Origin: Pyrinomonadales bacterium
Lineage (GTDB): Bacteria > Acidobacteriota > Blastocatellia > Pyrinomonadales > Pyrinomonadaceae
Assembly: GCA_038200505.1 (NCBI GenBank)
Contig: JBBPXX010000005.1
Location: 11,201-75,200 of the forward strand
DNA length: 64,000 nucleotides
Direction of reading: 5' to 3'
Shown: positions 556 to 19,732 of the stretch, one piece after another
Numbering within the stretch: position 1 is the stretch's first letter
How the letters are laid out: the number at the start of each line of letters is the position of its first letter
Translations under genes and position numbers: made by a program
Notes under the pieces: generated by a model
The model's database searches: none
Told to the model about the DNA's origin: nothing
Seen by the model: the letters and a program-made list of their open reading frames with translations, nothing else

Positions 556-1326
556 ATGAATAAAGAGAAATATCTTCACCGCATCGGAATTGAAAAAGCC
601 GATATTCAGGCAACTTTAGAAAATTTAAAACTTTTGCACAAACAGCATTTGCTCAATATTCCATTTGAAAATCTCGATATTCATTGGAAAAATCCGATTA
701 TTTTAGAAAAAGAATCCTTTTATCGAAAAATCATTGATAATGACAGAGGTGGTTTTTGTTATGAATTGAATGGTTTATTTTACGAATTGCTTAAATTAAT
801 CGGTTTCCGAAGCAAAATAATATCGGCAAAAGTGAGTAATGGCAACGGTGATTTCGGTGCAGAGTTCGACCATTTGGCAATCTTGACGAAAATTGACGGC
901 GAAGAATATCTAGTTGATGTCGGTTTCGGAAGTTTTACCGCCGAACCTTTGAAATTTGTTTTGGATGTTGAACAAAAAGACGAAACAGGCACATTTTCGA
1001 TTAGAAAATTTGACGAAAATTATTTTGAAGTAATCAAAAAAGACAACGGCAATTGGAAAAGCGAGTACATTTTTACAACTTTTCCGCGTGATTTGGCGGA
1101 ATTTACGGAAATGTGCAATTTTCATCAAACTTCACTCGAATCGCATTTTACGCAAGGCAAAGTTTGTTCGCTGATGACCGATGAAGGACGTAAAACTTTG
1201 ACCGACAAAAAGTTTATCGAAACAAAAGGCGGTCAAAAAAACGAAATCTCCGTAGAGTCGGATGAAGAATTTGATTTTATTTTAGAGCGCGAATTTTATA
1301 TCAAGCCGAAGTTTCGGCAAAAATAA
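556..1326 (+). CDS. arylamine N-acetyltransferase family protein
   Basis: Has LLNIPFENLDIH and the catalytic-Cys context RGGFCYELN typical of NAT enzymes. Length is 256 aa. Confidence 0.85.
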   Translation: MNKEKYLHRIGIEKADIQATLENLKLLHKQHLLNIPFENLDIHWKNPIILEKESFYRKIIDNDRGGFCYELNGLFYELLKLIGFRSKIISAKVSNGNGDFGAEFDHLAILTKIDGEEYLVDVGFGSFTAEPLKFVLDVEQKDETGTFSIRKFDENYFEVIKKDNGNWKSEYIFTTFPRDLAEFTEMCNFHQTSLESHFTQGKVCSLMTDEGRKTLTDKKFIETKGGQKNEISVESDEEFDFILEREFYIKPKFRQK

Positions 1327-2415: not shown

Positions 2416-2450
2416 GCAGTAGCAGATGAGAGTGGTCAAATCAACAGATT

Positions 2451-3062
2451 TTAACTGCCGATGCTACCGGATTCTGCCGTCATTAAACGCGAATTGTTGA
2501 CTTCGATTGGAAAAGTATCTCTAATTTTTTGAAAACCGCGCCGGATAAGAGATTTGACAGTGCCGAGCGGTAATCCGCATTCTTCGGCAATTTCGCTCTG
2601 CGACATTCCGCTGTAAATTGACATTTGGATAACCCGCCGTTGTTGTGGATTAAGCCGGTTTAGATGTTGGACGACTTCTTTGGCTTCTATGTAAATCTGC
2701 AATTTTTTGTCGGCTTCGCCGGAATGATTTTGTAAAATTTCTTCCGAGAAAAATGTTTGCGGCTGACGATTCGATTTTCGTAAACGATCAATTAAACGCC
2801 GACGTGCAATCAGCGAAATAAAATTTGCTTCACCGGATTTTTCCGCATCGAAACGTCCGGCATATTTCCAAATATCAATAAAAATATCCTGCACCGCATC
2901 TTCGGCATCTTCTCTCGAATTTAAGAAGTTTAAAGCTATTGACCAAACCAGTTTGCCGTATTTGTCCAAACATTCTTCAACTGCCATCTTATCTTCAACG
3001 GCGATTCTTTGAAGTATTGATGTGTTTGTATTTCGCTGCGTTTGAAAATCCGATGAACTCAT
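2451..3062 (-). CDS. ECF-type RNA polymerase sigma-70 family factor
   Basis: Region 2 (DIFIDIWKYAGRFD) and region 4 HTH (MSQSEIAEECGLPLGTVKSLIRRG) are present. I take the start at the ATG for MSSSDF (3062). The longer tracked ORF (to 3233) overlaps the upstream small gene. Confidence 0.85.
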   Translation of the reverse strand: MSSSDFQTQRNTNTSILQRIAVEDKMAVEECLDKYGKLVWSIALNFLNSREDAEDAVQDIFIDIWKYAGRFDAEKSGEANFISLIARRRLIDRLRKSNRQPQTFFSEEILQNHSGEADKKLQIYIEAKEVVQHLNRLNPQQRRVIQMSIYSGMSQSEIAEECGLPLGTVKSLIRRGFQKIRDTFPIEVNNSRLMTAESGSIGS

Positions 3063-3895: not shown

Positions 3896-4037
3896 CTGTG
3901 TTCCTTAAAGTTAATTTTTCTTTGTATATCTTCCTACCTTAATTCAAATACTATGCCATAAAAAATACAGTCTTTTATTTGAGTATTGGAATTGTAAAGT
4001 GGAGTTTATGTATCGAAATAAAACAGGTTTATGTATT

Positions 4038-4086: not shown

Positions 4087-6423
4087 TTAATTACGATTGA
4101 CATTTGAAGGTGCGGTTGCCGTAATCGTGAACTCCGATCCTTGGTCTAATTCGACATCATCGCGTCCCTGTATAAGCACAGTTCCGGCTCCGGCTCCGGC
4201 TCCGACTGCCGCGCCGATTGCCGCGCCTGAACCGCCGCCGGCGATAGCACCGATCAACGCTCCTAACGCTGCGCCGATTCCGGCACGTTGGACGGTTTTC
4301 GTGGTTTGGTTATTATCACGAACAGAACCTTCATTATTGACCGTTACGTTTTCGCCGCTCGCTAATTTTACATTGTCAACGATTCCGGCAAACTTATATG
4401 TTTGACCGTTTCTCAAGCGAATCGTATCGAATTCCAGCGAAACATTAGCTCTGCCCGAAACTTGTCCCGAGCGTTCGGCTTTCGTAACACGACCTTCGAT
4501 AATTGCTCCGTTGTATTGCGACGGTGATGAAACTTCCATCGTAAATCTGTCGCCGTCCTGCGTTGCTTTTGTCGAAATTTTTGATCTCAACGTCGCCAAT
4601 ATCTGCGTATTATTGGGAATGACAAAATTACCGTTTTGATTTCCCGCTGTATTATCGTTACCTAAGTTGTAAAACTGTGCCGTGTCATTAGTTTTGTCAT
4701 AAACACTGGCAACCGTTATCGTGTCGTTTCTGTTTTCCAAATAAACGCGGCGGACGACTTTTAATTGTCCGTTGCTCAACGGAATAAAGTTGACATAAAA
4801 ATCATTTGCCCGGTCGCCTTCATAACTCAAAGCCACGCCGTCATAAGTCGTATTGGCAGTAACTTTGATAGTACGTCCGTTATTCGTCGTTTCAGTTCGC
4901 GCAACATTATCGGCGGTAAAAGTAATCTGCGGCGTAGAACTAGAACCGACTGTTACTTGTTTATCTCTCTTTTCTATCGCCAACGTATCGGGTGAAGACA
5001 AACGTCTTTCAAGATTTCTTTGAAGATTATCGTTGCGTTGATTTGCATTGTAATAACTGTTTGTCGCTCTGCCGACAACTTCACTGACATTATCACTTTG
5101 CGCCGCATTCAAACGATATGTTCCGGTCAACATCGTATCGAATCTGCTCATCGGCGTGTATTGACGATTATTAAAATCAAAATTTACGCTGTAATAATTG
5201 GATAAAGTGTTCAAATCGGTGCGGAGCAAGTTCCAATCGTTTTCAGCGTTTGAGGTAAAACGATAATCGCGCATAAATCCGTTAATAAAATATGCACGGT
5301 TCAGAACTTCTTCAACATCAGCCGAAGTCGAGCGTCGCGCATCAAAATTTTGTTTTAACGAATCAGTCGCCTTTTCAAAATCCGTAATGTAGCTGTAAAG
5401 TGTTTCTTCACTTCTCGTGTTGTCCAAGACGCTTTTGTCTAACGCGGTGTTCATATTGCGTTTATAAGCATCAGTACGCTGTTCGATGCGGCTTAAAATC
5501 GTGCGGACGTTATTTTCGTTTCCGCGAAAAGGAATTCCGCCGGTCGTCGTATTGTTATTTATTACCGGGGCAGTGTTCCAATTGTAGCTGACATTGTAAT
5601 AACCGGCTAAATTCTGCAAATCAGTCTTCAGACTTTGCCATTGACGTTCGGCATTAGGTGCTAAACGATTCTGACGCATAAAATTATCAATATAATAAGC
5701 CCGATTCAAAACTTCGGTAACGTCCGCAGTTGCTGATTGGCGATCATCAAATTTACGATTTAACGAATCTGTCGCATTTTCAAAATCCTTGACATAATTG
5801 TTAATCATATCTTCGCTATCCGAGCCGTTCAGACGGCTTCGGTCGAGAGCATTGTTCAACACGCGCTTATAATTATCGGTATTTGTTTCAATGCGTGTCA
5901 GAAGTGCATCAACAGTTCTATCGTTGACGCGGTATGGATTTACTGTCGCCGTATTGACGGTTGAAGGTTTTGTCCAATCTCCCCTGACTGAGTAATAACC
6001 TGCCAAAGTAGTTAAATTCGTGCGAATATTCGCCCAACTTCTCTGCGCGGTTACGTCCAGTCGGTTGGTTTTCATAAATTCGTTAATATACGCGGCACGA
6101 TTCAGAACATTTTCAACGTCGGCAGTAACTGAACTTTTCGCTTCAAATCTCTGCTTCAAAGTGTCGGTTGCGGTTTCAAAATCACTAACGTAATTCAAAA
6201 CCATATCTTCACTGTTCTTATTGTTTAATCGTCGGCTGTTATCCAATGCGCGATCTAAATCACGTTTATAAGCATCAGTTCCGGTTTCGATTCGATTTAA
6301 TAAGCTTTGAACATTTCTGTCGGAAACACGATACGGACGCTGTGCCTGAACGCTCATCGTCGCCGTCGTTAATCCGATTGCTAATAATGTAATTGTAAAT
6401 AAGTTTAATATTTTCCTTTTCAT
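4087..6423 (-). CDS. secreted 778-aa protein with three tandem ~130-aa repeats and a C-terminal glycine-zipper segment
   Basis: N-terminal signal peptide (LLAIGLTTATMSVQAQ). The repeat unit RV.DR.V..LL.RIE..TD.YKR...ALD...EDM...YV.DFE.ATD.L...F....S...DV..VLNRA.YI..FM is seen three times. The C-terminal part contains GIGAALGALIGAIAGGGSGAAIGAAVGAGAGAG. Confidence 0.75.
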   Translation of the reverse strand: MKRKILNLFTITLLAIGLTTATMSVQAQRPYRVSDRNVQSLLNRIETGTDAYKRDLDRALDNSRRLNNKNSEDMVLNYVSDFETATDTLKQRFEAKSSVTADVENVLNRAAYINEFMKTNRLDVTAQRSWANIRTNLTTLAGYYSVRGDWTKPSTVNTATVNPYRVNDRTVDALLTRIETNTDNYKRVLNNALDRSRLNGSDSEDMINNYVKDFENATDSLNRKFDDRQSATADVTEVLNRAYYIDNFMRQNRLAPNAERQWQSLKTDLQNLAGYYNVSYNWNTAPVINNNTTTGGIPFRGNENNVRTILSRIEQRTDAYKRNMNTALDKSVLDNTRSEETLYSYITDFEKATDSLKQNFDARRSTSADVEEVLNRAYFINGFMRDYRFTSNAENDWNLLRTDLNTLSNYYSVNFDFNNRQYTPMSRFDTMLTGTYRLNAAQSDNVSEVVGRATNSYYNANQRNDNLQRNLERRLSSPDTLAIEKRDKQVTVGSSSTPQITFTADNVARTETTNNGRTIKVTANTTYDGVALSYEGDRANDFYVNFIPLSNGQLKVVRRVYLENRNDTITVASVYDKTNDTAQFYNLGNDNTAGNQNGNFVIPNNTQILATLRSKISTKATQDGDRFTMEVSSPSQYNGAIIEGRVTKAERSGQVSGRANVSLEFDTIRLRNGQTYKFAGIVDNVKLASGENVTVNNEGSVRDNNQTTKTVQRAGIGAALGALIGAIAGGGSGAAIGAAVGAGAGAGTVLIQGRDDVELDQGSEFTITATAPSNVNRN
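5164..6342 (-). repeat. three tandem in-frame coding repeats (~390 nt each) inside the 778-aa gene
   Basis: Protein residues ~28-160, ~161-290 and ~291-420 align by eye along their full length. The copies are diverged at the DNA level. Confidence 0.7.
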
Positions 6424-6513: not shown

Positions 6514-6528
6514 GCAAGAATCGTGCCA
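6514..6528 (-). promoter_or_regulatory. sigma-54 (-24/-12) promoter for the 778-aa repeat-protein gene
   Basis: The minus strand reads TTGGCACGATTCTTGCC with GG-N10-GC spacing. It lies ~90 nt upstream of the ATG at 6423. Confidence 0.7.
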
Positions 6529-6638
6529 ATAGACTCAAAATTTTGTTTAACCACTGTATTTGCAATGGGTTAGTATAAAGACGACTTTGGCAGAGAAGAC
6601 GAATAAACATAATTCTGCAATAAAACGATACGCACGGC

Positions 6639-8528: not shown

Positions 8529-8543
8529 GCAATACTTGTGCCG
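8529..8543 (-). promoter_or_regulatory. sigma-54 (-24/-12) promoter for the CHASE histidine kinase gene
   Basis: The minus strand reads ACGGCACAAGTATTGCG with GG-N10-GC spacing. It lies ~70 nt upstream of the ATG at 8459. Confidence 0.62.
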
Positions 8544-8736: not shown

Positions 8737-8752
8737 TGGCATTGTTTTTGCA
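8737..8752 (+). promoter_or_regulatory. sigma-54 (-24/-12) promoter for the 49-aa membrane peptide gene
   Basis: The plus strand reads TTGGCATTGTTTTTGCA with GG-N10-GC spacing. It lies ~60 nt upstream of the ATG at 8811. Confidence 0.7.
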
Positions 8753-8810: not shown

Positions 8811-8960
8811 ATGTCGGAAGAAAATAACACCGGAAACAATCTTATTTGGGCAATCGCCACCATAATCATCGTAGCAATTATTGCGGGAGCATTATATTTT
8901 ACAGTTTTGCAAGGTAACAAAACACAGAACAAAACCATTAACGTCGAAATACCGAAATAA
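8811..8960 (+). CDS. 49-aa single-pass membrane peptide, hypothetical
   Basis: ATG at 8811 is preceded by GGAGA. One hydrophobic helix (LIWAIATIIIVAIIAGALYF). A sigma-54 promoter lies ~60 nt upstream and a strong terminator lies downstream. Confidence 0.6.
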   Translation: MSEENNTGNNLIWAIATIIIVAIIAGALYFTVLQGNKTQNKTINVEIPK

Positions 8961-9030: not shown

Positions 9031-10560
9031 TTACAAATCGGCAATTTTTTCTTCGAGGTTATGCCGTTTTATCATCCCGTAAAGTCTTGGACGATATAAT
9101 CCTAAAAGATTCGCGGCGGCTTGTTTATTCCCGTTGGTGCGTTTTAACGCGGCTAAGACGACTCCGTTTTCAATCGAATTGAAGACATCTTTTTGATCTT
9201 CACCTTCCGTCGGTTCAGTTAGTTTTTCAACAATATATTTCCCGACTTCTTCAAACAATTCTTCACCTTCCAAATTATTTTGATACAGCAAACCGCTGCT
9301 GTTTTTTGCAATTCCGTTTTCTTCACCATTTGTCGGCAGACGGCTGTTTATCAGACTTTCTCTGTTGGCAATATCTTTGTATGAAATAGCACCTTCAAGA
9401 TTTTCGGGTATATTCAATTCGGTAATCGTCCCGTCCTTTGAAAGCAAAATCGCCCGCTCGATAACGTGCTGAAGTTCGCGCACGTTGCCGCGCCAATTAT
9501 AGTTGAGCATTTGGTTATAACTTCTTTCGGAAAACCGGAAATCTTCCTTTTTATATTTGTCGGCATAAATTTCCAAAAAATGTTCGGCAAGCATCGGCAC
9601 ATCGTCCATTCTCTCGCGCAGCGGCGGAATTTTTATTTCGATGGTGTTGATGCGGTAATATAAATCTTCTCTCAAACTATTGTCTTTGATAGCTTCAAAA
9701 GGACTGCGATTGGTCGAAGAAATCAGACGAAAATCAACTTCCTTGGGTTTGTCGCTGCCAACCGGATAATAAATTTTTTCCTGCAAAACCCGCAGCAGTT
9801 TCGGCTGCAAACTCATCGGCATTTCGCCGATTTCGTCCAACAAAAGACTTCCGCCGTTAGCGCGTCCGAGAAATCCTTCCTTATCGCTCGTCGCGCCCGT
9901 GAACGCGCCTTTTTTATGTCCGAAAAGTTCAGATTCGATCAATTCCTTCGGCAATGCCGAGCAATTTAATTTTACGAAAGGTTTTTTTGAGCGATGACTT
10001 TTGTAATGAATGGCGTTGGCGATCACTTCTTTGCCTGTTCCCGATTCGCCTAAAACAAGAATGTTTGCATCGGATTCGGCGACGCTTTCGATTATTTCAT
10101 AAATATTCTGCATCGAACGGCTTCCGCCGATCACGCCTTCATACGAAGTACGGCTCGAAAGTTTATCGCGCAGTTCTTTGATTTCAACTTTTTGTTTCTT
10201 TCGTTCGACGGCTTTTTCAACCAAAACCAACAATTCTTCAAATTCAACCGGCTTTTCCAAGAAATAAAACGCTCCGGCTTTGGTTGCTTCAACAGCTTTT
10301 TCAGTCGAACTAAAACCCGTAATCATAATGATTTCGGTTTCCGGCGACAATTCCTTACAACGGCGAACCATTTCGATACCGTCAAAATCGGGCATATTCA
10401 AATCGGTCAAGATAATATCGAAATCATTTTCCTCGACCAATTTTATTCCCTTTTCGCCGCGGTCAGCCGTCGTAACTTCAAAGCCTTCCGACTTTAGATT
10501 AAACTTCATCAAATCCAAAGTCGCCGCGTCGTCATCAATTACCAATGCTTTATTTGCCAT
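9031..10560 (-). CDS. sigma-54-dependent response regulator (NtrC family enhancer-binding protein)
   Basis: REC domain (DIILTDLNMPDFDG), AAA+ Walker A GESGTGKE, a GAFTGA loop and a C-terminal Fis-type HTH. ATG at 10560 has AGGAA 7 nt upstream. The tracked ORF extends to a TTG at 10584. Confidence 0.9.
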   Translation of the reverse strand: MANKALVIDDDAATLDLMKFNLKSEGFEVTTADRGEKGIKLVEENDFDIILTDLNMPDFDGIEMVRRCKELSPETEIIMITGFSSTEKAVEATKAGAFYFLEKPVEFEELLVLVEKAVERKKQKVEIKELRDKLSSRTSYEGVIGGSRSMQNIYEIIESVAESDANILVLGESGTGKEVIANAIHYKSHRSKKPFVKLNCSALPKELIESELFGHKKGAFTGATSDKEGFLGRANGGSLLLDEIGEMPMSLQPKLLRVLQEKIYYPVGSDKPKEVDFRLISSTNRSPFEAIKDNSLREDLYYRINTIEIKIPPLRERMDDVPMLAEHFLEIYADKYKKEDFRFSERSYNQMLNYNWRGNVRELQHVIERAILLSKDGTITELNIPENLEGAISYKDIANRESLINSRLPTNGEENGIAKNSSGLLYQNNLEGEELFEEVGKYIVEKLTEPTEGEDQKDVFNSIENGVVLAALKRTNGNKQAAANLLGLYRPRLYGMIKRHNLEEKIADL

Positions 10561-10751
10561 AGACAATTCCTGCTTTTTATCCAAAAACTAAATTTAAACT
10601 ATTAAAACGAATTATTATAAAAATAATTTGCCGTTGAATTATTTTCATTATTTAACAGCTAATAAAAAATTCTATTTTATTGTATCAAAAAAATTATTAA
10701 GTATAAGAATAAGTATAAGAATAAGGAAAAATGATTCGAACATTACACACG

Positions 10752-10783
10752 AAAAAAGAGGCAAGTCCCCTTGACTTACCTCT
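10752..10783 (-). terminator. intrinsic terminator of the orphan sigma-54 unit
   Basis: 11-bp stem AGAGGCAAGTC/GACTTACCTCT with 1 mismatch. On the minus strand it is followed by TTTTTT. Confidence 0.68.
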
Positions 10784-10997
10784 TAGTGTTTTCGCTCCCC
10801 AGTCTTTATAGACAAAACTATTTAATCTTTCGCCTATTTTTTTCTGCCGATTAGGAAACCGATTAACAAACCGAAAATACCCGCAATGGCAATACTCAAT
10901 TCCGGTTTATCTGTGATTGTTGCCGTAACTTATTGTCGTTTTTCGGCTTTGATTAGTTGAAAAAGCGAACTGTCATTTTGTTTCAAAGACCATTACC

Positions 10998-11012
10998 GCA
11001 AAGTTCGTGCCA
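10998..11012 (-). promoter_or_regulatory. sigma-54 (-24/-12) promoter of an orphan ~230-nt unit upstream of the activator gene
   Basis: The minus strand reads ATGGCACGAACTTTGCG with GG-N10-GC spacing. An intrinsic terminator follows at 10752..10783. Confidence 0.62.
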
Positions 11013-11223
11013 TCAACAATAAATGGATTAAATTTAACAATTTATGTAAAGTAATTTTCTAGGAGTTACGCAGTTAAAAATGAAAAAGTAAGAAAACATT
11101 CGGAATAACTGCTAGCTGGAAGATTATAGATGAGAGATTAAAACGATAGATTTATTATCTATCAGCTATAATTTATCATCTATTGCGAATAATTTTCCGT
11201 TTGAACTGCGTAACTTCTAAAAA

Positions 11224-11296
11224 GTTTTGAGTTCAAACTTTAGTTTGTCCGCCGCGCTTCGCCGACGGAAAGCACGCTAAAGCGTGAACTCAAAAC
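11224..11296. repeat. 73-nt GC-rich structured element closed by a 12-bp stem
   Basis: GTTTTGAGTTCA at 11224..11235 pairs with TGAACTCAAAAC at 11285..11296. Two small internal hairpins are possible. Confidence 0.5.
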
Positions 11297-11387
11297 ATTA
11301 AAAAACTTATTTTACGGTGTGTTTAATATTATTTCGCAATGATTTAATACATAATAAGTTGCAGAAATTCTTTATCAATAATTTTCT

Positions 11388-11807
11388 ATGCCCGAAATCG
11401 TTAATAACCAACGCAAAATCAAAATCAATAATGAAATCTTTCAAGCATTTACTGAAAGTGCGGGAGAAAAAATCAGCGAAACCAAAGACAAGGATTTTAC
11501 AATAGCGTTTATATCGGATAAAAAGATGCGCGAATTAAATTTTAATTTTCGTAGCAAAAACTCGACGACGGATGTATTATCTTTTCCTTTTGAAACCGAC
11601 GAATTTGAAGATGATAATCTCGGCGACATTGCAATTTCGCTCGAACAAGCTGCAAGACAGGCAATCGAAAATAATCTTGATTTTGAAACGGAAATAAAGC
11701 AGCTTATTCTGCACGGTATTCTGCATTTATGCGGTTACGACCACGAAACCGACGACGGCGAAATGAATAAACGCGAACTCAAACTTCGTGATAAACTCGG
11801 AATTTAA
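11388..11807 (+). CDS. ybeY: rRNA maturation endoribonuclease YbeY
   Basis: Has the HGILHLCGYDHE zinc-binding motif. Length is 139 aa. Confidence 0.9.
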   Translation: MPEIVNNQRKIKINNEIFQAFTESAGEKISETKDKDFTIAFISDKKMRELNFNFRSKNSTTDVLSFPFETDEFEDDNLGDIAISLEQAARQAIENNLDFETEIKQLILHGILHLCGYDHETDDGEMNKRELKLRDKLGI

Positions 11808-11810
11808 ATT

Positions 11811-12269
11811 ATGGCGGCAAAATTTGATTATTCGCTCGATTATAAAAATTTGGATTTGAGAAAACACCCTGAACTTTACTGCATCGGGAAAGGCGAACAG
11901 GGAGTTTTACTTGTAGAGCCGTATAAAAGTGAAGTTCTTAGGCATTGGAGATTTAAAACGCCGGAAATCGCCGAAGAATCGAGCGCGAAAATTTACGAAC
12001 TTTTTCTCGAATACAAAGAGCAAAAAGATTTTGTCGGAATGGATATGGCGCGAAAGTTTTTGCAGATGGGAATTACGCGGGCGCGGCGTTATGCCAATCA
12101 TAAATCCGGGCGCAAGTATAAAAAAGGCACGAAGGAAATTTTGCCGATTGAAGAAGACAAAGTAAAAGCCGAATCCGCGAAAATCTTTTCGGAGAAATAT
12201 TATCTTGCCAAAAATGATGAAGTTTATCAGGCGTTGATGAAGGAACATAAGGAAAAATATGAAGAATAA
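11811..12269 (+). CDS. DUF4385-like protein
   Basis: The block HPELYCIGKGEQGVLLVEPYKSE..HWRFKTPEIA...ARKFLQMG.TRARRYANHKSG matches my recollection of the DUF4385 family. Confidence 0.65.
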   Translation: MAAKFDYSLDYKNLDLRKHPELYCIGKGEQGVLLVEPYKSEVLRHWRFKTPEIAEESSAKIYELFLEYKEQKDFVGMDMARKFLQMGITRARRYANHKSGRKYKKGTKEILPIEEDKVKAESAKIFSEKYYLAKNDEVYQALMKEHKEKYEE

Positions 12270-12277
12270 TCAAAAAT

Positions 12278-12829
12278 ATGGCAATTGAAATCGAGAAAAA
12301 ATTCACATTATCAAACGATCAGCGCGAACAGATTTTGGCAAGTTTAAAAGAATTCGGCGCGGAATATATCAGAGAAGATTTTGAAGAAAACATACTTTAC
12401 CAAGGCAGTATTTTGATGGAAAAAGGCGCGGTTTTGCGCGTTCGTAAAATTGGCGATAAAACGATTTTGACTTATAAAGAACCCGTTCAAAATTCATTGG
12501 CGCACAAACAGCGAATCGAATATGAAACGGAAGTCGAAAATGCCGACGAACTTGAAAAAATTATTGAAAATCTCGGTTTCACAAAAGCGTTGGTTTATGA
12601 AAAACGCCGAAAAATCTGGCATTTCCGAAGTGTGGAAATCGTTTTGGATGAATTGCCATTTGGAATTTATATGGAAATCGAAGGTTCGATAACAGCGATT
12701 GCCGAAGCGGAAATGTTTCTCGACGGCGAAAATCTGGAAGAAGAAAATCAAACTTATCCGCGCCTGACGGAAAGGTTCGGTGTGCGAAAAGAACACTTGA
12801 TTGAAGCGAGATTTTCAAAAAGTTCTTGA
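12278..12829 (+). CDS. CYTH domain protein (triphosphate tunnel metalloenzyme / class IV adenylate cyclase-like)
   Basis: Has the N-terminal IEIEKKF (ExExK) signature. Length is 183 aa. Confidence 0.75.
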   Translation: MAIEIEKKFTLSNDQREQILASLKEFGAEYIREDFEENILYQGSILMEKGAVLRVRKIGDKTILTYKEPVQNSLAHKQRIEYETEVENADELEKIIENLGFTKALVYEKRRKIWHFRSVEIVLDELPFGIYMEIEGSITAIAEAEMFLDGENLEEENQTYPRLTERFGVRKEHLIEARFSKSS

Positions 12830-12893
12830 TTTTATGCAAGTGTTTGAGTTATGCTCGTTCTATAAGAAATTTTCAAAAGGGAGAAAAACAGCA

Positions 12894-13469
12894 ATGAACA
12901 AACATGTCGTCGGGTTTATACTTTTTAATTTAATTGTCGGAACAAGCATAATTATCGCGGCTTTCTTTTATCAAATACCGAAATTTGAAAGCGTCGTTGT
13001 TACGCCTGTAACATCTGAAACTTATACGCGAAGCTGCTGGAAAGGTAATAAAAGATACGCTAACAAAATGACTTCGGTAAAAATTACACAGGCAGTTTTT
13101 GATAGTAAAACAGAAGAATTGAAGTTAGAATTATTTGTTCAATCAGATGTAAAATCATTTAAGAATATCAAAGTATCATTTAAGAATATTAAAGTAGCTC
13201 TGCATTTCTTCGTGAAAGACGGCGATTCAACTCGCTATTTGGCAACTGAAAAATTAACAGATGAAAAAATGGATAAGGTCAATATTGATCTTTCCGAAGG
13301 CGCAAAAATCACTTTTTTGATAACATCTTCATATGACTGGCTTGGCAATCTTAACTCACGCGAGAATTTGTATGTTATTCCTGAACTTACTTCAAATGCA
13401 AATACTTATGGAGATTACACGCCTGTTTTTGACGAAGCAAATGCAACGCCTGTAACGCTTGCCCGATAA
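12894..13469 (+). CDS. membrane-anchored hypothetical protein, 191 aa
   Basis: ATG at 12894 follows AAGGGAGAA. N-terminal TM helix. Contains an internal SFKNIKV duplication. Confidence 0.55.
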   Translation: MNKHVVGFILFNLIVGTSIIIAAFFYQIPKFESVVVTPVTSETYTRSCWKGNKRYANKMTSVKITQAVFDSKTEELKLELFVQSDVKSFKNIKVSFKNIKVALHFFVKDGDSTRYLATEKLTDEKMDKVNIDLSEGAKITFLITSSYDWLGNLNSRENLYVIPELTSNANTYGDYTPVFDEANATPVTLAR

Positions 13470-13496
13470 ATATTTTCAGGTAAAAAACAATTTATA

Positions 13497-13523
13497 AAAG
13501 CTGCTCGTCGAGCGGCTTTTTTT
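13497..13523 (+). terminator. intrinsic terminator after the 12894..13469 gene
   Basis: AAAGCTGCT-CGTCG-AGCGGCTTT followed by a T run. Confidence 0.6.
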
Positions 13524-13686
13524 CTTTGCAAGTTATTTTTCGATATAATTTTCAGAGATTTGCGCTATAGAAAATGCGATTTTCGGAAATGTATTTGATT
13601 TAGCCGAAAGTTCTTTAGGAATTGATTTGAAAAACTGCCGACGTGGTTTTTTAAATCTTTTCGGCAAAGCGCGGCAACTGAAGTAA

Positions 13687-13737
13687 TTCAAAGTTTAAGG
13701 TTCACAGTTTTAAGGCAAACTGACTTTGAACTTTGAA
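13687..13737. repeat. word-repeat hairpin (TTCAAAG/CTTTGAA words) 3' of the hybrid kinase gene
   Basis: TTCAAAGTTTAAGGTTCACAGT faces ACTGACTTTGAACTTTGAA. The stem is imperfect. Confidence 0.55.
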
Positions 13738-13743
13738 CTTCCG

Positions 13744-15693
13744 TTATTTCTTCACAATTTCCAAAATGTCTTGAATAATTACATCCGGCTCGAAAGGTTT
13801 GGTGTGATATTTTTGAAAACCTGCGCTGTAAGCCTTGTTTTTGTTGTCATTTGAAGCAAACGCACTGAGCGCGAGCGCGGGAATTTCTCCGCCGTTTTCG
13901 GCAGTCAATTTTCGGATGCGTTCAATAAAGGAATAACCGTCTTCATTGGGCATTGCTAAATCCGAAATTAGCACATCCGGCAAATTTCCGTTTGATTCCC
14001 GTAATAAATTGATTGCTTCCTGCGCCGAATTCGTGCTTTCAACCACAGCACCGCTTTGTTCCAAAAGCAAATGCAGAACTTCGCGTGAGTCGGGATCGTC
14101 TTCAATCACTAAAACTTTTATTCCTTTTAATTGCTTGTCATTATTTGAAACGGATTTTTCGACTTCCAACGGTGAAGCCGTCTGCGTTCCGCACAAAGGG
14201 AAAAAGATGGTAAAGGTTGCGCCTTTACCGACTCCGGCACTTTCCGCTTCTATTTTTCCGTTGTGTTTTTCGACTAAAATTTTGACAATTGACAAACCGA
14301 GTCCCAAACCGCTTCTGTCGAGCGATTGTCTTTCGTCATCCTGACGAAACTGCCGAAAAATGTTCGGCAGCGCACTCGGAATAATTCCCTGTCCGTTGTC
14401 TTTAACGGAAATTTTGACGGAATTAACATCGGCTTGAGCGTCAATTTTGATGTCGCCGCCTTCGCGTGTAAATTTCATCGCGTTTGACAGCAAATTTGAA
14501 AAAATCTGCTGCAAACGAAAAGCATCGCCGTAAACCTGAATATTTTCCACATTCGCAGTGAATTCGAGATTTATATTTTTCGATTCGGCGGCAGGCTGCT
14601 GCGAATTATAAGCGGTTTTGAGAACTTCAAAAAGATTTAACGGCTGCATTTCGAGTTTCAGCTTGCCGGACGAAATCCGCGCCGAATCAATCAAATCGTC
14701 AATCAATTTAGCCTGCGTCCGCGCACTTTTCTCAATGGTTTCGAGTGCGCTTTTTCTCGTTTCGTCGTCAACTTCCTTGGTCAGCAGAATTTTCGACCAA
14801 CCCAAAATCGCATTGAGCGGCGACCTTAATTCGTGTGAAACGACGGCGAGAAAAAAATCTTTGGCGCGATTGGCTTCCTCGGCTTCATCACGCGCTTTTT
14901 TCTCACGATCATAAACTTTTGAGAGTTCTTCGTTGGCTAGCTTTTTATCCGTAATTTTTCTGACAACGCCCATCATAATTTGTGGATTTCCTTCGTCGTC
15001 AAGATAAGTTTTTCCGCGCGATCCGATCCATTCAATATTGCCGTCCGAATATACGACCCGAAATTCAGAATTATACTCTCTGCCGTGTGTTTGTGATTCC
15101 TTCAGTGCGGCTTCAACCTGCGGACGATCTTCAGGATGAATAACTTTCATAAAAGAATCCAGAGCAATAATATCGTTCTGAGAAACTTCAAATAGTTCAT
15201 TGCATTTCGGAGTCGAATATCTTGAATCTTTTGCCAAATCCCAATACCAAAGCCCGACTTCCGCATTTTCAGCCGCGTAAAGCAGATATTCACTGCGTTC
15301 CTTATAATATTCGATTTCCTTTTCGCGGGCGGTAACTTCGTGGGCGCAAAAAAAGATTTTTTCTACTTTTTCATCTTCAAAAATCGGATGCAAATATAAT
15401 TCGACATTTATTTTTTCATTGGCACTGACTCTGAAATCCACCAGAATTTTTTCCCTGTTACCTTCCGCCGCTTGTGAAATTGAACTTTCGACCTGTTTGG
15501 CGATATGCTCCGACGATTGCCAATAAACCGTTTCGGAAAACTTTTGACCAATCAGGAGTTCAGGATTCGTATCTATCTTTTCAAAAACCCTTCCATTAAG
15601 GCTTTGAACAGAACCCTTAACTGAAAGCGTCCCAAAAAAGGCAAATACATTTTTGAAAATATCCAAAGTATAACCGTCAGGGGTAAATTCCAT
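13744..15693 (-). CDS. hybrid sensor histidine kinase/response regulator with PAS domains
   Basis: PAS-like N-terminal half, HisKA VVSHELRSPLNAI, HATPase GLGLGLSIV, and a C-terminal REC (DVLISDLAMPNEDG). The start could also be 15711. GGAGA precedes the ATG at 15693. Confidence 0.85.
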   Translation of the reverse strand: MEFTPDGYTLDIFKNVFAFFGTLSVKGSVQSLNGRVFEKIDTNPELLIGQKFSETVYWQSSEHIAKQVESSISQAAEGNREKILVDFRVSANEKINVELYLHPIFEDEKVEKIFFCAHEVTAREKEIEYYKERSEYLLYAAENAEVGLWYWDLAKDSRYSTPKCNELFEVSQNDIIALDSFMKVIHPEDRPQVEAALKESQTHGREYNSEFRVVYSDGNIEWIGSRGKTYLDDEGNPQIMMGVVRKITDKKLANEELSKVYDREKKARDEAEEANRAKDFFLAVVSHELRSPLNAILGWSKILLTKEVDDETRKSALETIEKSARTQAKLIDDLIDSARISSGKLKLEMQPLNLFEVLKTAYNSQQPAAESKNINLEFTANVENIQVYGDAFRLQQIFSNLLSNAMKFTREGGDIKIDAQADVNSVKISVKDNGQGIIPSALPNIFRQFRQDDERQSLDRSGLGLGLSIVKILVEKHNGKIEAESAGVGKGATFTIFFPLCGTQTASPLEVEKSVSNNDKQLKGIKVLVIEDDPDSREVLHLLLEQSGAVVESTNSAQEAINLLRESNGNLPDVLISDLAMPNEDGYSFIERIRKLTAENGGEIPALALSAFASNDNKNKAYSAGFQKYHTKPFEPDVIIQDILEIVKK

Positions 15694-15802
15694 TTTTTTC
15701 TCCATCTGCATACAAAAATTTTATTATAAAAAATTATACTTAATTTAATGTTTGACTGCATTCATAAAATTTTGATTAAGTGTGTCTTGAAAAGTTTAAA
15801 TC

Positions 15803-15844
15803 AAAAAAACCTCGACCTCCGACTTATTCGGAAGGCGAGGTTTT
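15803..15844 (-). terminator. intrinsic terminator after the lmo0937-family gene
   Basis: Stem CCTCGACCTCCGA/TCGGAAGGCGAGG (11 of 13 bp) with A7 on one side and T4 on the other. Confidence 0.6.
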
Positions 15845-15907
15845 AACGGCAAAAAAGTAAAATACTTATTTTCGGTTGTTGCTGCCGATCAAAAATGTAT
15901 ATCAAAT

Positions 15908-16054
15908 TTACACGACTTTTCTACCTGAAACCAATCTGATTACTAAAACTACAAGCGCGATGACTAGAAGTATATGAATAAGTACTCCGCCGAAACTGAA
16001 GACAAAGCCTAACAACCACAAAACTACCAAAATAACAATAATCGTTTCCAACAT
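15908..16054 (-). CDS. lmo0937-family small membrane protein, 48 aa
   Basis: Not in the ORF track because it is under 60 aa. Translation is MLETIIVILVVLWLLGFVFSFGGVLIHILLVIALVVLVIRLVSGRKVV. AAGGAGAA lies 6-7 nt upstream and a terminator hairpin lies downstream. Confidence 0.6.
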   Translation of the reverse strand: MLETIIVILVVLWLLGFVFSFGGVLIHILLVIALVVLVIRLVSGRKVV

Positions 16055-16233
16055 AATCTTTTCTCCTTATTCTTCCCTCAATTTTTGAAACTTATGCTTC
16101 TAAGCACTATAACTTTTGTAACTTCAATTTTTGTGCCAAACATACTAAGTTGAAGTAAGTGAAGAGTTTAAGTTTAAAGTAAGTTTGCCGGATTTATGTT
16201 AAATTTTTATGTAGTATTAAAACGATACAAAAA

Positions 16234-17151: not shown

Positions 17152-17376
17152 GTGTATGCAAGATTCTTTGGACTTCTTGGTAAGCGAATCAGAACTTTAC
17201 GCGAAGAAAGTGGATTGTCGCAAGAAAAATTCGCCGAAAAGTGTGGATTTGACAGAACTTATATCAGTCTTTTAGAGCGCGGAAAAAGAAATCCGTCCTA
17301 TATAAATCTGCTCAAAGTTGCCAAAGGTTTTGAAATTTCAATCTCTGAATTATTGAACATATCAAATGGCACTTAA
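17152..17376 (+). CDS. restriction-modification controller (C) protein, XRE-type HTH
   Basis: GLSQEKFAEKCGFDRTYISLLERGKRNPS is the typical C-protein HTH. GTG start. The 3' end overlaps the start of the next gene by 11 nt. Confidence 0.75.
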   Translation: MYARFFGLLGKRIRTLREESGLSQEKFAEKCGFDRTYISLLERGKRNPSYINLLKVAKGFEISISELLNISNGT

Positions 17377-18349
17377 ACCCGTTGACGAACAACACGCTTT
17401 ACAAATTCAAGCCGGAACAATAGGAAGGAAGAAAGGACACGATTTTGAGGATAATTTGACTTCAAAATTGAATTCTTTACCGATGCCTTACAAGATTGAG
17501 GAATTTCCTGAACCGGAAAAACATTTATTTACAGATAATCCTGAAATATCTGTTTTACATTATGTTTGCTCTCGAAAAGGCATTTTTGAAATAAAGCAGA
17601 TTATCGCAATTTCCACAGGCGCATTAGCGACATCTGAAGCTGGCAAAAAGTGGTTGGACGTGAACGGCGTGAAAGTATCGAGATGCAAAAGCGACGTAAT
17701 TTTAACTTTGAAATTAAAAGATAATACTGATGTAACCGTCGGAATTTCCACAAAGCAATGCAACAATAAAACTCCAACAAACGCGCAATTATATTTCACC
17801 ACAGCCAGAGCTTTTTGCGCTCTTTTGAGGAATAACAACATAGAAGTTGCCGAAAAAGGCGAAAAAGCATTGCGTCAATTTTGCGGCGACGAAGGCTTTC
17901 GTCCGCTTGATTTTCCTCATCTACTTACAGACAGACAAAGCGATCCGCGCCGATTTTTCTGGGAGGAAATTGATTCGGAAGGACGAGTTGAGTTGGAAAA
18001 TTTATTGACCAAAAAGCAAGATGAAATAACGCGCCTTTTATTGCAAAAAGCATATCTTGATGATCCATTTGCGCCTGATTTTATTCTGCATAAAACAAAA
18101 CGTGCGGACAGTTGGGAGAAAACGGAAGTTGCAATTTATACAGTTGACGAACTGATTAGACTTTCGAGAAATTACGCCGGATTTGCTCTTGAATCATATT
18201 CCGTCAGAAAAGGAAGTTACCGTGATCCAAAAGGAGTTACACATTTAGCTCCGCGTTTCGGCATCGTTCAAATGCAGCGCGGCGGACAATCTCAACATCC
18301 GACGCAACTACAATTCAACTTAAAAGCCGGATATTTCTACAAGATTTAA
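17366..18349 (+). CDS. putative type II restriction endonuclease, 327 aa
   Basis: Sits directly after, and overlaps, a C protein, and is convergent with a C5 methyltransferase. A possible PD-(D/E)xK-like core is KSDVILTLKL...VGISTKQ. Specificity is unknown. Confidence 0.6.
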   Translation: MALKPVDEQHALQIQAGTIGRKKGHDFEDNLTSKLNSLPMPYKIEEFPEPEKHLFTDNPEISVLHYVCSRKGIFEIKQIIAISTGALATSEAGKKWLDVNGVKVSRCKSDVILTLKLKDNTDVTVGISTKQCNNKTPTNAQLYFTTARAFCALLRNNNIEVAEKGEKALRQFCGDEGFRPLDFPHLLTDRQSDPRRFFWEEIDSEGRVELENLLTKKQDEITRLLLQKAYLDDPFAPDFILHKTKRADSWEKTEVAIYTVDELIRLSRNYAGFALESYSVRKGSYRDPKGVTHLAPRFGIVQMQRGGQSQHPTQLQFNLKAGYFYKI

Positions 18350-19732
18350 CAATTCCATTTTGATATGTCGGGCAATCGCAAAGGCAAGCAAAGGCGGCAA
18401 GGCATTTCCAATGGTTGCGCGAATATCGCCGAGCGAACCGACGAATTTGAAAGTATCGGGAAATGATTGAATACGCGCCGCTTCTCTGACAGTTAAAGAG
18501 CGCGTGGCAATCGGATGGACATTGCGACAACCGGAAATCATTCCGAAAGTAGTTTGAACGGTTGAAGCCGGTTCGTTCCAAATCTGGCGTTTATAAGTCG
18601 TGTTATAACCGGAAGGCGGACGCAAATTCGCGTCTTCGTTTTCGTGTGCGCTTTTTCCTTGCGGCACATCCCAAAGCCATTTGATAACGTGGTCTGGATG
18701 TCTAACCGCTTCGTGCAGAGAATCGGTTTGGCTTTTTTCACCGGATTCAAGAAATTCTAAATCAGAACAGGCATCAGCAAATGTGCGATAAGGCGCAACA
18801 GAGGAAAAAAGATTGTTCGTTTCTCCGTGTGTCGGCAACGACATTGTCGGTTCAATATTTTTCAAATCATTTCTAACAGCAATAAAAATTACCCGTTCGC
18901 GGTGTTGCGGAATTCCATAATCTTTAGCATTAATTTCAAAATGCTTAACTCGATAACCCGACGCATCAAAATCTTTGTAAATTTGATTTAGAACTAAGTT
19001 GCCGTCGGCAGTTTTCATTGAAGTTAAAAGCCGGACATTTTCCATAACGGCAACTTTTGGCTGTAATCCGTTGACTATTTTTAAATAACTCTTAAACAAA
19101 TTATTTCTGGAGTCGCTTACATCACGTTTGCCGGAAAGACTAAAACCCTGACAAGGCGGACCACCGATAACAACATCAATTTCGCCAAATTCATTTTTCC
19201 ATTGGTTAATTATTTTGTCGTTGATTTTTTTTATATCCGCGCCTAATTCGACGGCTTTAGAGAAATTTTGCCGATAAATTTTACGGAAGGCATTTTTTAA
19301 TTCTAAAAAACCAAGTATTTCAAAATCAGCCCAAGAAAAACCTAAGCTAAAACCGCCGCAACCGGAAAATAAAGAAATAACTTTTCCCTTTTTTTGATTA
19401 GAAATTCGTGTTTTTTCAAGTTGATCTAAAAAAGTGAGATAATTTTTGTTTTCTTCCGTTCGTCTAATTTTAGATTTACGAGAAACTGTTTTCGGAATTC
19501 CATCAAAAGAATGAACTTGATAGCGTTTCTTTTTAATCTCCCGAACTTGAGTTTTACTGATTTCACTCAAAACTTTATGAAGAGAAGATAAATTATTTTG
19601 ATTTAAAGAGGATTTTCCAAGTTCATAAGCAGACAATAAATGTTGCGGAATATCAGCTAACTCTGAAAGTTTAGCTTGCGATAATCCAATCTCTTTGCGT
19701 TTTTCTCTTGTTGAAGTTCCCGAATTTATCAT
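18320..19732 (-). CDS. DNA (cytosine-5)-methyltransferase with N-terminal XRE-type HTH extension
   Basis: Motif I FSGCGGFSLGF, IV GGPPCQGFS, VI MENV, VIII QHRERVIFIA, X GNALPP. The N-terminal ~60 aa contain IGLSQAKLSELADIPQHLLSAYELGK. Confidence 0.92.
   Translation of the reverse strand: MINSGTSTREKRKEIGLSQAKLSELADIPQHLLSAYELGKSSLNQNNLSSLHKVLSEISKTQVREIKKKRYQVHSFDGIPKTVSRKSKIRRTEENKNYLTFLDQLEKTRISNQKKGKVISLFSGCGGFSLGFSWADFEILGFLELKNAFRKIYRQNFSKAVELGADIKKINDKIINQWKNEFGEIDVVIGGPPCQGFSLSGKRDVSDSRNNLFKSYLKIVNGLQPKVAVMENVRLLTSMKTADGNLVLNQIYKDFDASGYRVKHFEINAKDYGIPQHRERVIFIAVRNDLKNIEPTMSLPTHGETNNLFSSVAPYRTFADACSDLEFLESGEKSQTDSLHEAVRHPDHVIKWLWDVPQGKSAHENEDANLRPPSGYNTTYKRQIWNEPASTVQTTFGMISGCRNVHPIATRSLTVREAARIQSFPDTFKFVGSLGDIRATIGNALPPLLAFAIARHIKMELLNLVEISGF

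Follow-up and report, generated by a model that had tools for sequence, protein, structure and literature searches.

Organization of the locus

We analysed a 64,000-nucleotide stretch from a Pyrinomonadales bacterium (contig JBBPXX010000005.1), here called the window, and in particular the intergenic region upstream of its gene for an NtrC-type response regulator (RR). A preliminary description of this region listed an exact sigma-54 −24/−12 motif, a hairpin followed by a T-run and, beyond it, the NtrC-type gene, and all of these are indeed present on the minus strand. Between promoter and hairpin lies a 31-codon open frame. Our comparison with related genomes indicates that this frame is the fossil, untranslated end of a deleted open reading frame (ORF) inside a conserved sigma-54 unit, a reading to which we give a probability of roughly 85%. 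The unit probably yields a non-coding RNA of ~235 nucleotides (nt), and the adjacent RR is its likely activator.

For the comparison, ~25 loci orthologous to the RR gene region were taken from species genomes, and 16 further loci were added by exact-protein look-up of 12 RR homologues. In all collected loci, which carry L-number labels such as L082, the RR gene is on the plus strand. The homologues of the window RR are 75–92% identical, and those with names belong to the Pyrinomonadaceae (Acidobacteriota, Blastocatellia). The unit consists of the following features, given in the direction of transcription:

10998..11012, minus strand: sigma-54 −24/−12 promoter TGGCACgaactTTGC, exact consensus TGGCAC-N5-TTGC
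10960..10987, minus strand: remnant of the 5′ untranslated region (5′UTR), its first ~30 nt, from a local alignment with L084
10947..10960, minus strand: deletion junction; one local alignment stops at 10960 and the other starts at 10947
10930..10932, minus strand: nonsense codon TAA, a Gln codon (CAG) in L082 and L085
10834..10947, minus strand: fossil remains of the final ~38 codons of an ElaB/YqjD/DUF883-like gene, enclosing the 31-codon frame, from the alignment with L082
10748..10810, minus strand: conserved 63-nt 3′ module of single-stranded ACUGGGGAGCGAAAACA, hairpin and U-tract, with GGGGAG at 10800..10795
10784..10756, minus strand: terminator stem of 12 base pairs (bp), 5 of them G-C, with a loop of 5, starting 214 nt downstream of the promoter
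10755..10750, minus strand: U-tract TTTTTT, directly after the hairpin
10679..10687, minus strand: extended −10-like element TGATACAAT, directly downstream of the terminator and upstream of the RR gene
9031..10560, minus strand: NtrC-type RR/sigma-54 activator gene (ATG at 10560; Pfam Response_reg, Sigma54_activat, AAA_lid_14 and HTH_8)

The promoter shows the full sigma-54 −24/−12 consensus, of which the 64-kb window holds two exact copies, the second 4.5 kb away before the next target gene. The clade variant TGGCAY-N5-TTGM has five matches in the window against 0.57 expected, a number reached in 0/100 shuffles, and all five sites are intergenic, properly oriented and located between 3.9 and 16.1 kb of the window. 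The orthologous promoter is kept in at least eight relatives (L081, L084, L085, L096, L004, L102, L103 and L104). Judging by the standard −12 spacing, transcription would start near 10987.

The 31-codon frame: remnant of a deleted gene

The open frame (10929..10834, minus strand) translates as VTATITDKPELSIAIAGIFGLLIGFLIGRKK*. As had been described before, it has no ribosome-binding site (RBS), and the sole ATG ORF between promoter and terminator is only seven codons long (ATG at 10976, MTVRFFN*). A start at the TTG at 10899 would yield 21 amino acids (aa; MSIAIAGIFGLLIGFLIGRKK) and not 20, the number given earlier.

In L085, L096, L097, L098, L021 and L024, an intact gene for a product of 152–157 aa lies between the sigma-54 promoter and the RR gene. 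L082 also holds a gene of this class, interrupted by an assembly gap that lies inside the ORF and also masks the promoter region. Judged from this arrangement, the same sigma-54 promoter drives the tail-anchored 152–157-aa gene in the sister genomes, where a conserved 3′UTR with terminator and then the regulator gene follow. The products end in …AEARQQVKKSIKQKPELSLAIAGVFGLLIGLMIGRRSK in L085 and in …AEARQQVTTTIKNKPELSIAVAGIFGLLIGLLIGRNKQAKN in L082, and the window reads …AEKRQ*VTATITDKPELSIAIAGIFGLLIGFLIGRKK* at this point. When these proteins were compared with the window by tblastn, the L082 protein gave 75.6% identity over 41 aa (E 8e-17, in a tiny database of the units only), the L085 protein 67% over 36 aa (E 1.9e-11, in a small database of upstream regions), and the L021 and L024 proteins 47% over 36 aa (E 6e-5 and 1e-4, in a database of ~1.2 Mb). 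All of these alignments cross the in-frame TAA of the window.

The deletion junction was placed by aligning the window locally with L082 and L084, its closest relatives; global DNA alignments with the more distant intact genes of L085, L096 and L098 were too noisy to locate it. Window positions 10947..10748 align with L082 positions 2628..2827 over 200 nt without a gap, from the coding 3′ end through the stop codon and the 3′UTR to the terminator. On the other side of the junction, window positions 11058..10960 align with L084 positions 2417..2513, which cover the promoter and the start of the 5′UTR (about 30–35 nt). The distance from the promoter to the GGGGAG of the 3′ module is 212 nt in the window and 563–603 nt in the ORF-bearing loci. 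This spacing and the local alignments together indicate that ~375 bp were lost in the window, namely the rest of the 5′UTR with its RBS, the start codon and ~112 codons. An intact gene, with RBS, start codon and uninterrupted frame, is therefore not what the window contains, and on these alignments the 31-codon frame is a fossil tail anchor and not a gene.

The preliminary description had considered a functional micro-protein, a small membrane or type I toxin-like peptide made from the TTG frame (MSIAIAGIFGLLIGFLIGRKK). The frame is open and its product could plausibly be one transmembrane helix ending in a basic tail, and in the transmembrane part synonymous differences from L082 exceed non-synonymous ones (9 versus 6). 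This excess is, however, expected from constraint on the intact L082 lineage. Moreover, there is no Shine-Dalgarno sequence, GGA lying merely 2 nt ahead of the TTG, and the TTG itself is the Leu codon of PELS, which reads TTA in L082 and L096. We found no small ORF common to the ORF-less units, and no equivalent of the window frame in L004, L081, L102, L103 or L104. As the frame lacks an RBS and a start codon and no short ORF is conserved, we infer that no peptide is made. With the frame identified as the 3′ end of a deleted gene that carries a TAA upstream, a micro-protein seems to us highly improbable. A −1 frameshift from the ATG at 10976 into the transmembrane frame was also considered and rejected: no canonical slippery heptamer is present, and such a frame would in any case end at the TAA at 10932.

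The parent protein resembles ElaB in its tail anchor

The fragment in the window matches Pfam PF19029 (DUF883_C, 'C-terminal glycine zipper region') with E 6.5e-4 and 19.7 bits, which is under the gathering score of 27, and the intact relatives match it more weakly (E 0.012–0.5). A profile of the relatives aligned by hhalign to residues 74–100 of E. coli ElaB, its tail anchor, with a probability of 77% (E 2e-5, 27 columns). The label 'ElaB/YqjD/DUF883 family membrane-anchored ribosome-binding protein' is carried in JGI by 4 of the 47 listed homologues, and one homologue has a precomputed PF19029 match. The N-terminal part of the parent protein is deleted in the window; in the intact relatives, Pfam gave no match to an N-terminal DUF883 domain, just weak Apolipoprotein/Perilipin-like noise. 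Full-length homologues have a charged, polar N-terminus (MNNLNSTAAKQVKEDVENLK…) without a hydrophobic stretch. By architecture and tail anchor, we file the parent provisionally as ElaB-like.

It had also been suggested that the frame is the decayed 3′ end of a sorting-signal protein. The first half of this suggestion holds, since the frame is the decayed 3′ end of a gene; the family does not, as the parent is an ElaB/YqjD/DUF883-like tail-anchored protein. A PEP-CTERM/exosortase signal and the window fragment share a superficial likeness, in that both carry a hydrophobic helix and, after it, basic residues at the C-terminus. However, the fragment reads KPELS and has no PEP motif, the homologues are tail-anchored and ElaB-like with polar N-termini, and the Pfam and NCBIfam searches returned DUF883_C and no PEP-CTERM model. 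We rejected the PEP-CTERM signal on these grounds and give a remnant of this kind next to no credence.

The promoter and the 3′ module outlive the ORF

The ORF has decayed to different degrees in the relatives. L084 retains the N-terminal 38 codons and a transmembrane fragment and L081 only a weak N-terminal trace (E 0.064), while L004, L102, L103 and L104–L106 show no trace of it. All seven ORF-less lineages, the window included, nevertheless retain an exact or near-exact sigma-54 promoter, and all seven retain the 63-nt module, 66–310 nt downstream of the promoter; the sequence between promoter and module is unalignable. On the RR tree, ORF-bearing and ORF-less members are intermingled in the clade of the window. 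This interleaving points to at least five independent losses of the ORF, of which four spared promoter and module; lineages that lost the ORF independently and kept both number at least four (the window, L081, L084 and L102). The sister clade (clade B) has no ORF-bearing member, and promoter and module are kept there in L004, L103 and L104. In several lineages (L099/L100, L005, L006 and L003) everything has been lost. Because promoter and module are under constraint in seven ORF-less lineages, the module likely has a function that is independent of the ORF.

It could be argued that promoter, fossil and terminator are an inert relic that is merely uneroded in the window genome, and that the RNA, if made, is inactive. 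The ORF is demonstrably dead, an upstream activating sequence (UAS)-like site has been pushed to 338 nt by an insertion (see below), and the complete losses just mentioned fit this view as well. It leaves unexplained, though, why promoter, GGGGAG and a covarying hairpin were retained for so long in clade B (L004, L103 and L104) and in L102, where the ORF trace is gone and neutral sites are saturated. In the window, too, promoter and module are undamaged (75.9 bits with the covariance model described below). We consider an inert relic unlikely.

Structure and conservation of the 3′ module

The hairpin, with 5 G-C pairs in its 12-bp stem and a U-tract directly after it, is of the kind found in intrinsic (Rho-independent) terminators. 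A generic terminator scan of the 4-kb region found five terminators against 5.1 expected and hence no enrichment. The module consists of a single-stranded CUGGGGAGCGUGAACA, a covarying hairpin and the U-tract. Among the ORF-less units, the consensus is an (A/U)(C/U)(U/C)GGGGAG(C/A/U)(G/U)UGAACA-like single strand, a hairpin and a U-rich tract, and the conserved RNA part can be written as single-stranded CUGGGGAG(C)G(U)GAACA plus the hairpin. GGGGAG is unpaired in both the minimum free energy and the centroid folds.

Among the window, L081, L082, L084, L085, L096, L097 and L098, the module is 0.75–0.90 identical, compared with 0.40–0.65 at 4-fold degenerate sites of the neighbouring RR gene. 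GGGGAG is invariant in 12/12 sequences. These include L104, for in L104–L106 (~1100..1165) GGGGAG is kept and a hairpin of wholly different sequence (GAGAGACATAAAC…GTTTATGTCTCTC) stands in the same register, which could reflect either wholesale compensatory turnover or replacement. Across the 12 lineages, 98.6% of the cells of the hairpin are paired and 7 of its 12 pairs show double changes; 0/500 shuffles equalled this, and slid controls scored far lower. The covariance analysis in related genomes that the preliminary description had proposed thus had a positive outcome, in that the hairpin covaries and the locus is conserved in relatives. The G·U pairs are compatible with the RR-sense strand alone. 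With conservation beyond the neutral level and a supported hairpin, the module shows the conservation and structure looked for in 3′UTR-derived or terminator-proximal small RNAs (sRNAs) of the GlnZ and CpxQ kind.

A covariance model of the module (R1) scored 75.9 bits in the window and matched this locus only, across 610 kb of related DNA. It found a degenerate copy (41 bits) in L001, the sole lineage without the promoter that has kept the spot. A blastn search of the first 80 loci with the entire intergenic region as query likewise matched only the terminator region of L001. Rfam gave no gathering-level match in the whole window, and between 10400 and 11500 only chance-level matches at E up to 10. 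The module pattern matched nine loci in metagenome contigs, all by chance and in settings unrelated to this one. L021 and L024, which are more distant but bear the ORF, lack the module.

These data bear on the possibility of a trans-acting, sigma-54-dependent sRNA, in which the single-stranded CUGGGGAGCGUGAACA beside the terminator would be a seed or a protein-binding site. In ORF-bearing genomes, such an sRNA would be released from, or carried by, the 3′UTR of the ElaB-like mRNA; in ORF-less genomes such as the window it would be the primary transcript, with the fossil coding sequence as passenger RNA. In favour of it are the retention of promoter and module in seven ORF-less lineages across unalignable intervening DNA, the identity of the module beyond the 4-fold sites, a GGGGAG that is invariant even with the replaced hairpin of L104, G·U pairs that suit this strand alone and the decay of the module in L001, where the promoter is gone. 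The architecture also equals that of glnA-GlnZ-glnLG (PMC9731577; 10.1101/2022.04.01.486790). On the other hand, a purine-rich, Shine-Dalgarno-like seed is atypical of sRNAs that repress by covering ribosome-binding sites, the module is missing from the ORF-bearing L021 and L024 and has been lost in several lineages, and it has no Rfam relative. We regard a trans-acting sRNA as possible but doubtful. The comparison makes the sigma-54-dependent regulatory RNA suggested earlier more plausible, as promoter and module are constrained in seven ORF-less lineages. The Rfam searches revealed no relation to GlmY or Qrr, and only the last ~63 nt are conserved.

Two other roles for GGGGAG were considered. 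A Shine-Dalgarno sequence of a small ORF was rejected: GGGGAG is too close to the GTG or TTG that follows after 1 nt in L081, L084 and L103, and the window has GAA there. A CsrA sponge is unsupported: GGGGAG contains a GGA, but a GGA in the loop occurs in only about half of the sequences, which leaves too few sites.

The regulator gene has a promoter-like element of its own

The translation of the RR gene contains a visible GAFTGA motif. Upstream of the gene, the extended −10-like block (TTTGATACAAT) is the most widely shared 7-mer block, present in 18–19 of 33 orthologous loci and in orthologues whose RR protein identity goes down to ~65%. The element TGATACAAT lies 16–137 nt from the RR start codon in all loci that have it, except in L097 (254 nt). 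It is probably the RR gene's own sigma-70-type promoter, which would make the regulator independent of the sigma-54 promoter. We rejected GGGGAG as a spacing-dependent element of this RR promoter, since it lies anywhere between 99 and 113 nt from TGATACAAT in the six loci that were compared.

In distant orthologues (L007–L014, L016, L018, L020, L022 and L025), a sigma-54 promoter lies 65–283 nt before the RR gene with no gene in between, which suggests that an autoregulatory role of this promoter is ancestral. The unit might accordingly act in cis as an insulator or attenuator: the sigma-54 promoter would be the ancestral autoregulatory promoter, and the hairpin would limit or tune read-through into the RR gene, with GGGGAG bound by a factor, or by 30S subunits, to modulate termination. 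The distant orthologues argue for this, as does the frequent occurrence of sigma-54 and TGATACAAT promoters in tandem. A C breaks up most of the U-tracts, a sign that the terminators may be leaky. A precedent is found in E. coli, where glnLG is served by read-through from glnAp2 as well as by its own promoter. Against a cis function, the window terminator is strong (12 bp plus six U), and L001 and L099, which have no sigma-54 promoter, keep the RR gene with its own promoter. A conserved anti-terminator pairing was also looked for and not found; GGGGAG can form only weak, G·U-rich and unconserved pairs with the 3′ arm or the U-tract. We entertain the cis function as a possibility, with less than even confidence. 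The 'leader for autoregulation' of the activator that had been proposed before is likewise possible, though the activator appears to have its own sigma-70-type promoter-like element past the terminator.

A UAS-like site displaced by palindromic DNA

Upstream of the promoter, two further features were found:

11336..11350, minus strand: UAS-like half-palindrome GTATTAAATCATTGC, a candidate activator-binding site, 338 nt upstream of the promoter start
11059..11310: ~250 bp of palindromic DNA between UAS-like site and promoter, an insertion relative to L081

The pattern GTAT-N7-[AT]T[AG]C was present upstream of 54 of the 92 sigma-54 sites in the window and the orthologous loci, against 0.10 expected per 400 bp, usually at 88–105 nt from the sigma-54 site. 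In the window it occurs on the minus strand at 6617..6631, 11336..11350 and 16214..16228; as the pattern was derived after the sites had been seen, this window-only count is circular. We propose the pattern as a candidate binding site of the adjacent sigma-54 activator. An enhancer-binding protein would be expected to act from a UAS ~80–150 bp away, and the RR has both the Sigma54_activat domain and the GAFTGA motif, but the UAS-like site in the window stands at 338 nt. It is homologous to a block that lies at 90 nt in L081, and the interval between UAS and promoter measures ~65 nt in L081 and ~310 nt in the window. The site thus moved from ~90 to 338 nt because of the ~250-bp palindromic insertion. 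The inserted DNA contains two partly overlapping inverted repeats, 11053-11086/11193-11226 with 34-nt arms and 11211-11243/11277-11309 with 33-nt arms, and the repeat search found a 15-nt inverted repeat nested within 11053..11310. Neither the window nor the loci collected up to that stage contain another copy of 11059-11310. As no repeat family could be demonstrated, an origin from a miniature inverted-repeat transposable element is unsupported, although the DNA may be of a similar kind.

A putative sigma-54 stress regulon and neighbouring genes

Further sigma-54 sites in the window precede the following genes:

3944..3958, minus strand: before a Dps-like ferritin gene
6514..6528, minus strand: before the gene for a 778-aa repeat protein with a Gly-zipper_YMGG tail
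8529..8543, minus strand: before a CHASE histidine kinase gene, with one mismatch
8737..8751, plus strand: before a small transmembrane ORF
16124..16138, minus strand: before an lmo0937/DUF5670 gene

In Proteobacteria and Firmicutes, comparable general stress genes are under the alternative sigma factors RpoS and SigB. This cluster of sites looks like a 'general stress' regulon under sigma-54 and an NtrC-type RR rather than under a factor of the RpoS or SigB type, and the locus outlines a putative sigma-54/NtrC-type/CHASE-kinase regulon with Dps, ElaB-like, lmo0937-like and Gly-zipper genes.

The small transmembrane ORF (MSEENNTGNNLIWAIATIIIVAIIAGALYFTVLQGNKTQNKTINVEIPK; 8811..8960, plus strand) lies between the RR and kinase genes; it is preceded by a GGAG RBS and served by a sigma-54 site of its own. 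Among close relatives whose loci extend far enough downstream, most have a 51–57-aa gene called on the opposite strand at the corresponding place (L081–L085, L095–L100 and L102–L106). No Pfam or NCBIfam family matches the ORF. The 778-aa protein (4087..6423, minus strand) contains three repeats of ~130 aa (…PYRV(S/N)DR.V..LL.RIE..TD.YKR…) between a signal-like N-terminus and the C-terminal Gly-zipper_YMGG; its gene is predicted to be sigma-54-driven and is kept downstream of the kinase gene in relatives.

A divergent lmo0937-like gene and the gene of a PAS hybrid kinase adjoin the unit on its upstream side in most relatives. The window and L081 have a ybeY-DUF4385-CYTH block directly upstream instead, and in the window the hybrid kinase gene (13744..15711) and the lmo0937-like gene (15907..16053) are found further on, in opposite relative orientation. 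The differing upstream neighbours (11388..16138 compared with L001, L084 and L085) point to a rearrangement breakpoint just upstream of the UAS. A restriction-modification-like gene pair occupies 17366..19732, with a 470-aa protein (N-terminal helix-turn-helix, cytosine-5 methyltransferase motif GGPPCQGFS) and a convergent 327-aa ORF.

A model for the unit

In the window genome, a deletion of ~375 bp joined the first ~30 nt of the 5′UTR to codon ~113, and a Gln codon turned into TAA. For the unit that is left, we propose the following course of events. A signal sensed by the CHASE kinase would lead to phosphorylation of the RR, and the phosphorylated RR would bind GTAT-N7-ATAC sites and activate sigma-54 holoenzyme at 11012..10998. 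The RNA would start near 10987 and mostly stop at the hairpin and U-tract (10750). This ~235-nt RNA would remain untranslated, its last ~63 nt being the only conserved part, and the regulator gene would owe most of its expression to its own extended −10 promoter further downstream.

Several points weigh against a fossil in a conserved, untranslated unit. L082, the closest ORF-bearing relative, is gapped within the gene, so that its intactness is assumed. Promoter activity, transcript ends and lack of translation have been deduced from the DNA. The DUF883 match of the parent is sub-threshold in Pfam and confined to the tail anchor. L001, L099/L100, L005 and L006 have lost promoter, module or both with no evident damage to the locus, so any function is dispensable; and with the UAS displaced to 338 nt, the window promoter may be poorly activated.

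The pseudogene itself is ordinary, and its recognition removes a false micro-protein or toxin candidate. The retention of promoter and module without the ORF is what would be expected of a 3′UTR element with an independent function, and it provides a testable RNA candidate in the Acidobacteriota, from which, to our knowledge, almost no sRNAs are known. Promoter and 63-nt module may even represent a regulatory RNA in a sigma-54 stress regulon of the Pyrinomonadaceae, one that was formerly the 3′UTR of the ElaB-like mRNA and outlived the ORF in at least seven lineages; we put this forward tentatively and think it more likely wrong than right. If true, the loci would form a natural series of an mRNA turning into an sRNA gene, and the RNA would be among the first sRNA candidates of the Acidobacteriota.

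Comparison with known systems

Sigma-54-dependent sRNA genes beside their activators are known, such as glmY next to glrKR and qrr1 next to luxO. Like these, the window unit runs from a sigma-54 promoter to a terminator without a functional ORF, lies by an NtrC-type activator gene and has a UAS-like palindrome upstream. It differs from them in that it has no Rfam match, its RNA body is unconserved save for the last ~63 nt, and it is demonstrably derived from an mRNA.

E. coli ElaB, YqjD and YgaM (DUF883, COG4575) are C-tail-anchored inner-membrane stress proteins (PMC6389858; PMC5525287), and ElaB is under the control of RpoS and OxyR (PMC6389858). The parent protein is similar in size and layout: it has ~155 aa and a polar, charged N-terminus; its N-terminal part is helical and apolipoprotein-like, and one glycine-zipper transmembrane helix stands at the C-terminal end, followed by a short basic tail. 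The relatives' profile aligns to ElaB 74–100, the JGI family name agrees, and the gene appears to belong to a stress-type regulon together with those for Dps, lmo0937-like and Gly-zipper proteins. In contrast to the E. coli proteins, its similarity is limited to the tail anchor, under the Pfam gathering score and without an N-terminal DUF883 match; its gene would be driven by sigma-54 and an NtrC-type activator instead of RpoS and OxyR, and it is dead in the window.

GlnZ of the Enterobacteriaceae is an sRNA derived from the 3′UTR of the NtrC/sigma-54-dependent glnA mRNA, just upstream of glnLG (PMC9731577; 10.1101/2022.04.01.486790). The order is the same here, with a sigma-54 promoter, the target ORF, a conserved 3′UTR with terminator, an own promoter and the activator gene or genes, and the conserved RNA part adjoins the terminator in both cases. 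The window module has no sequence or Rfam relationship to GlnZ, its motif is purine-rich, and it is known from sequence alone. A repeated loss of the ORF with retention of the 3′ module, as seen here, is undescribed for GlnZ.

Finally, the unit resembles deletion-derived pseudogenes and the sRNA-like transcripts of decayed genes, with its internal deletion and nonsense codon, the promoter and terminator left in place and the varied decay in sister lineages. What sets it apart from a plain pseudogene is that the control elements of units of this type are under purifying selection after the loss of the ORF.

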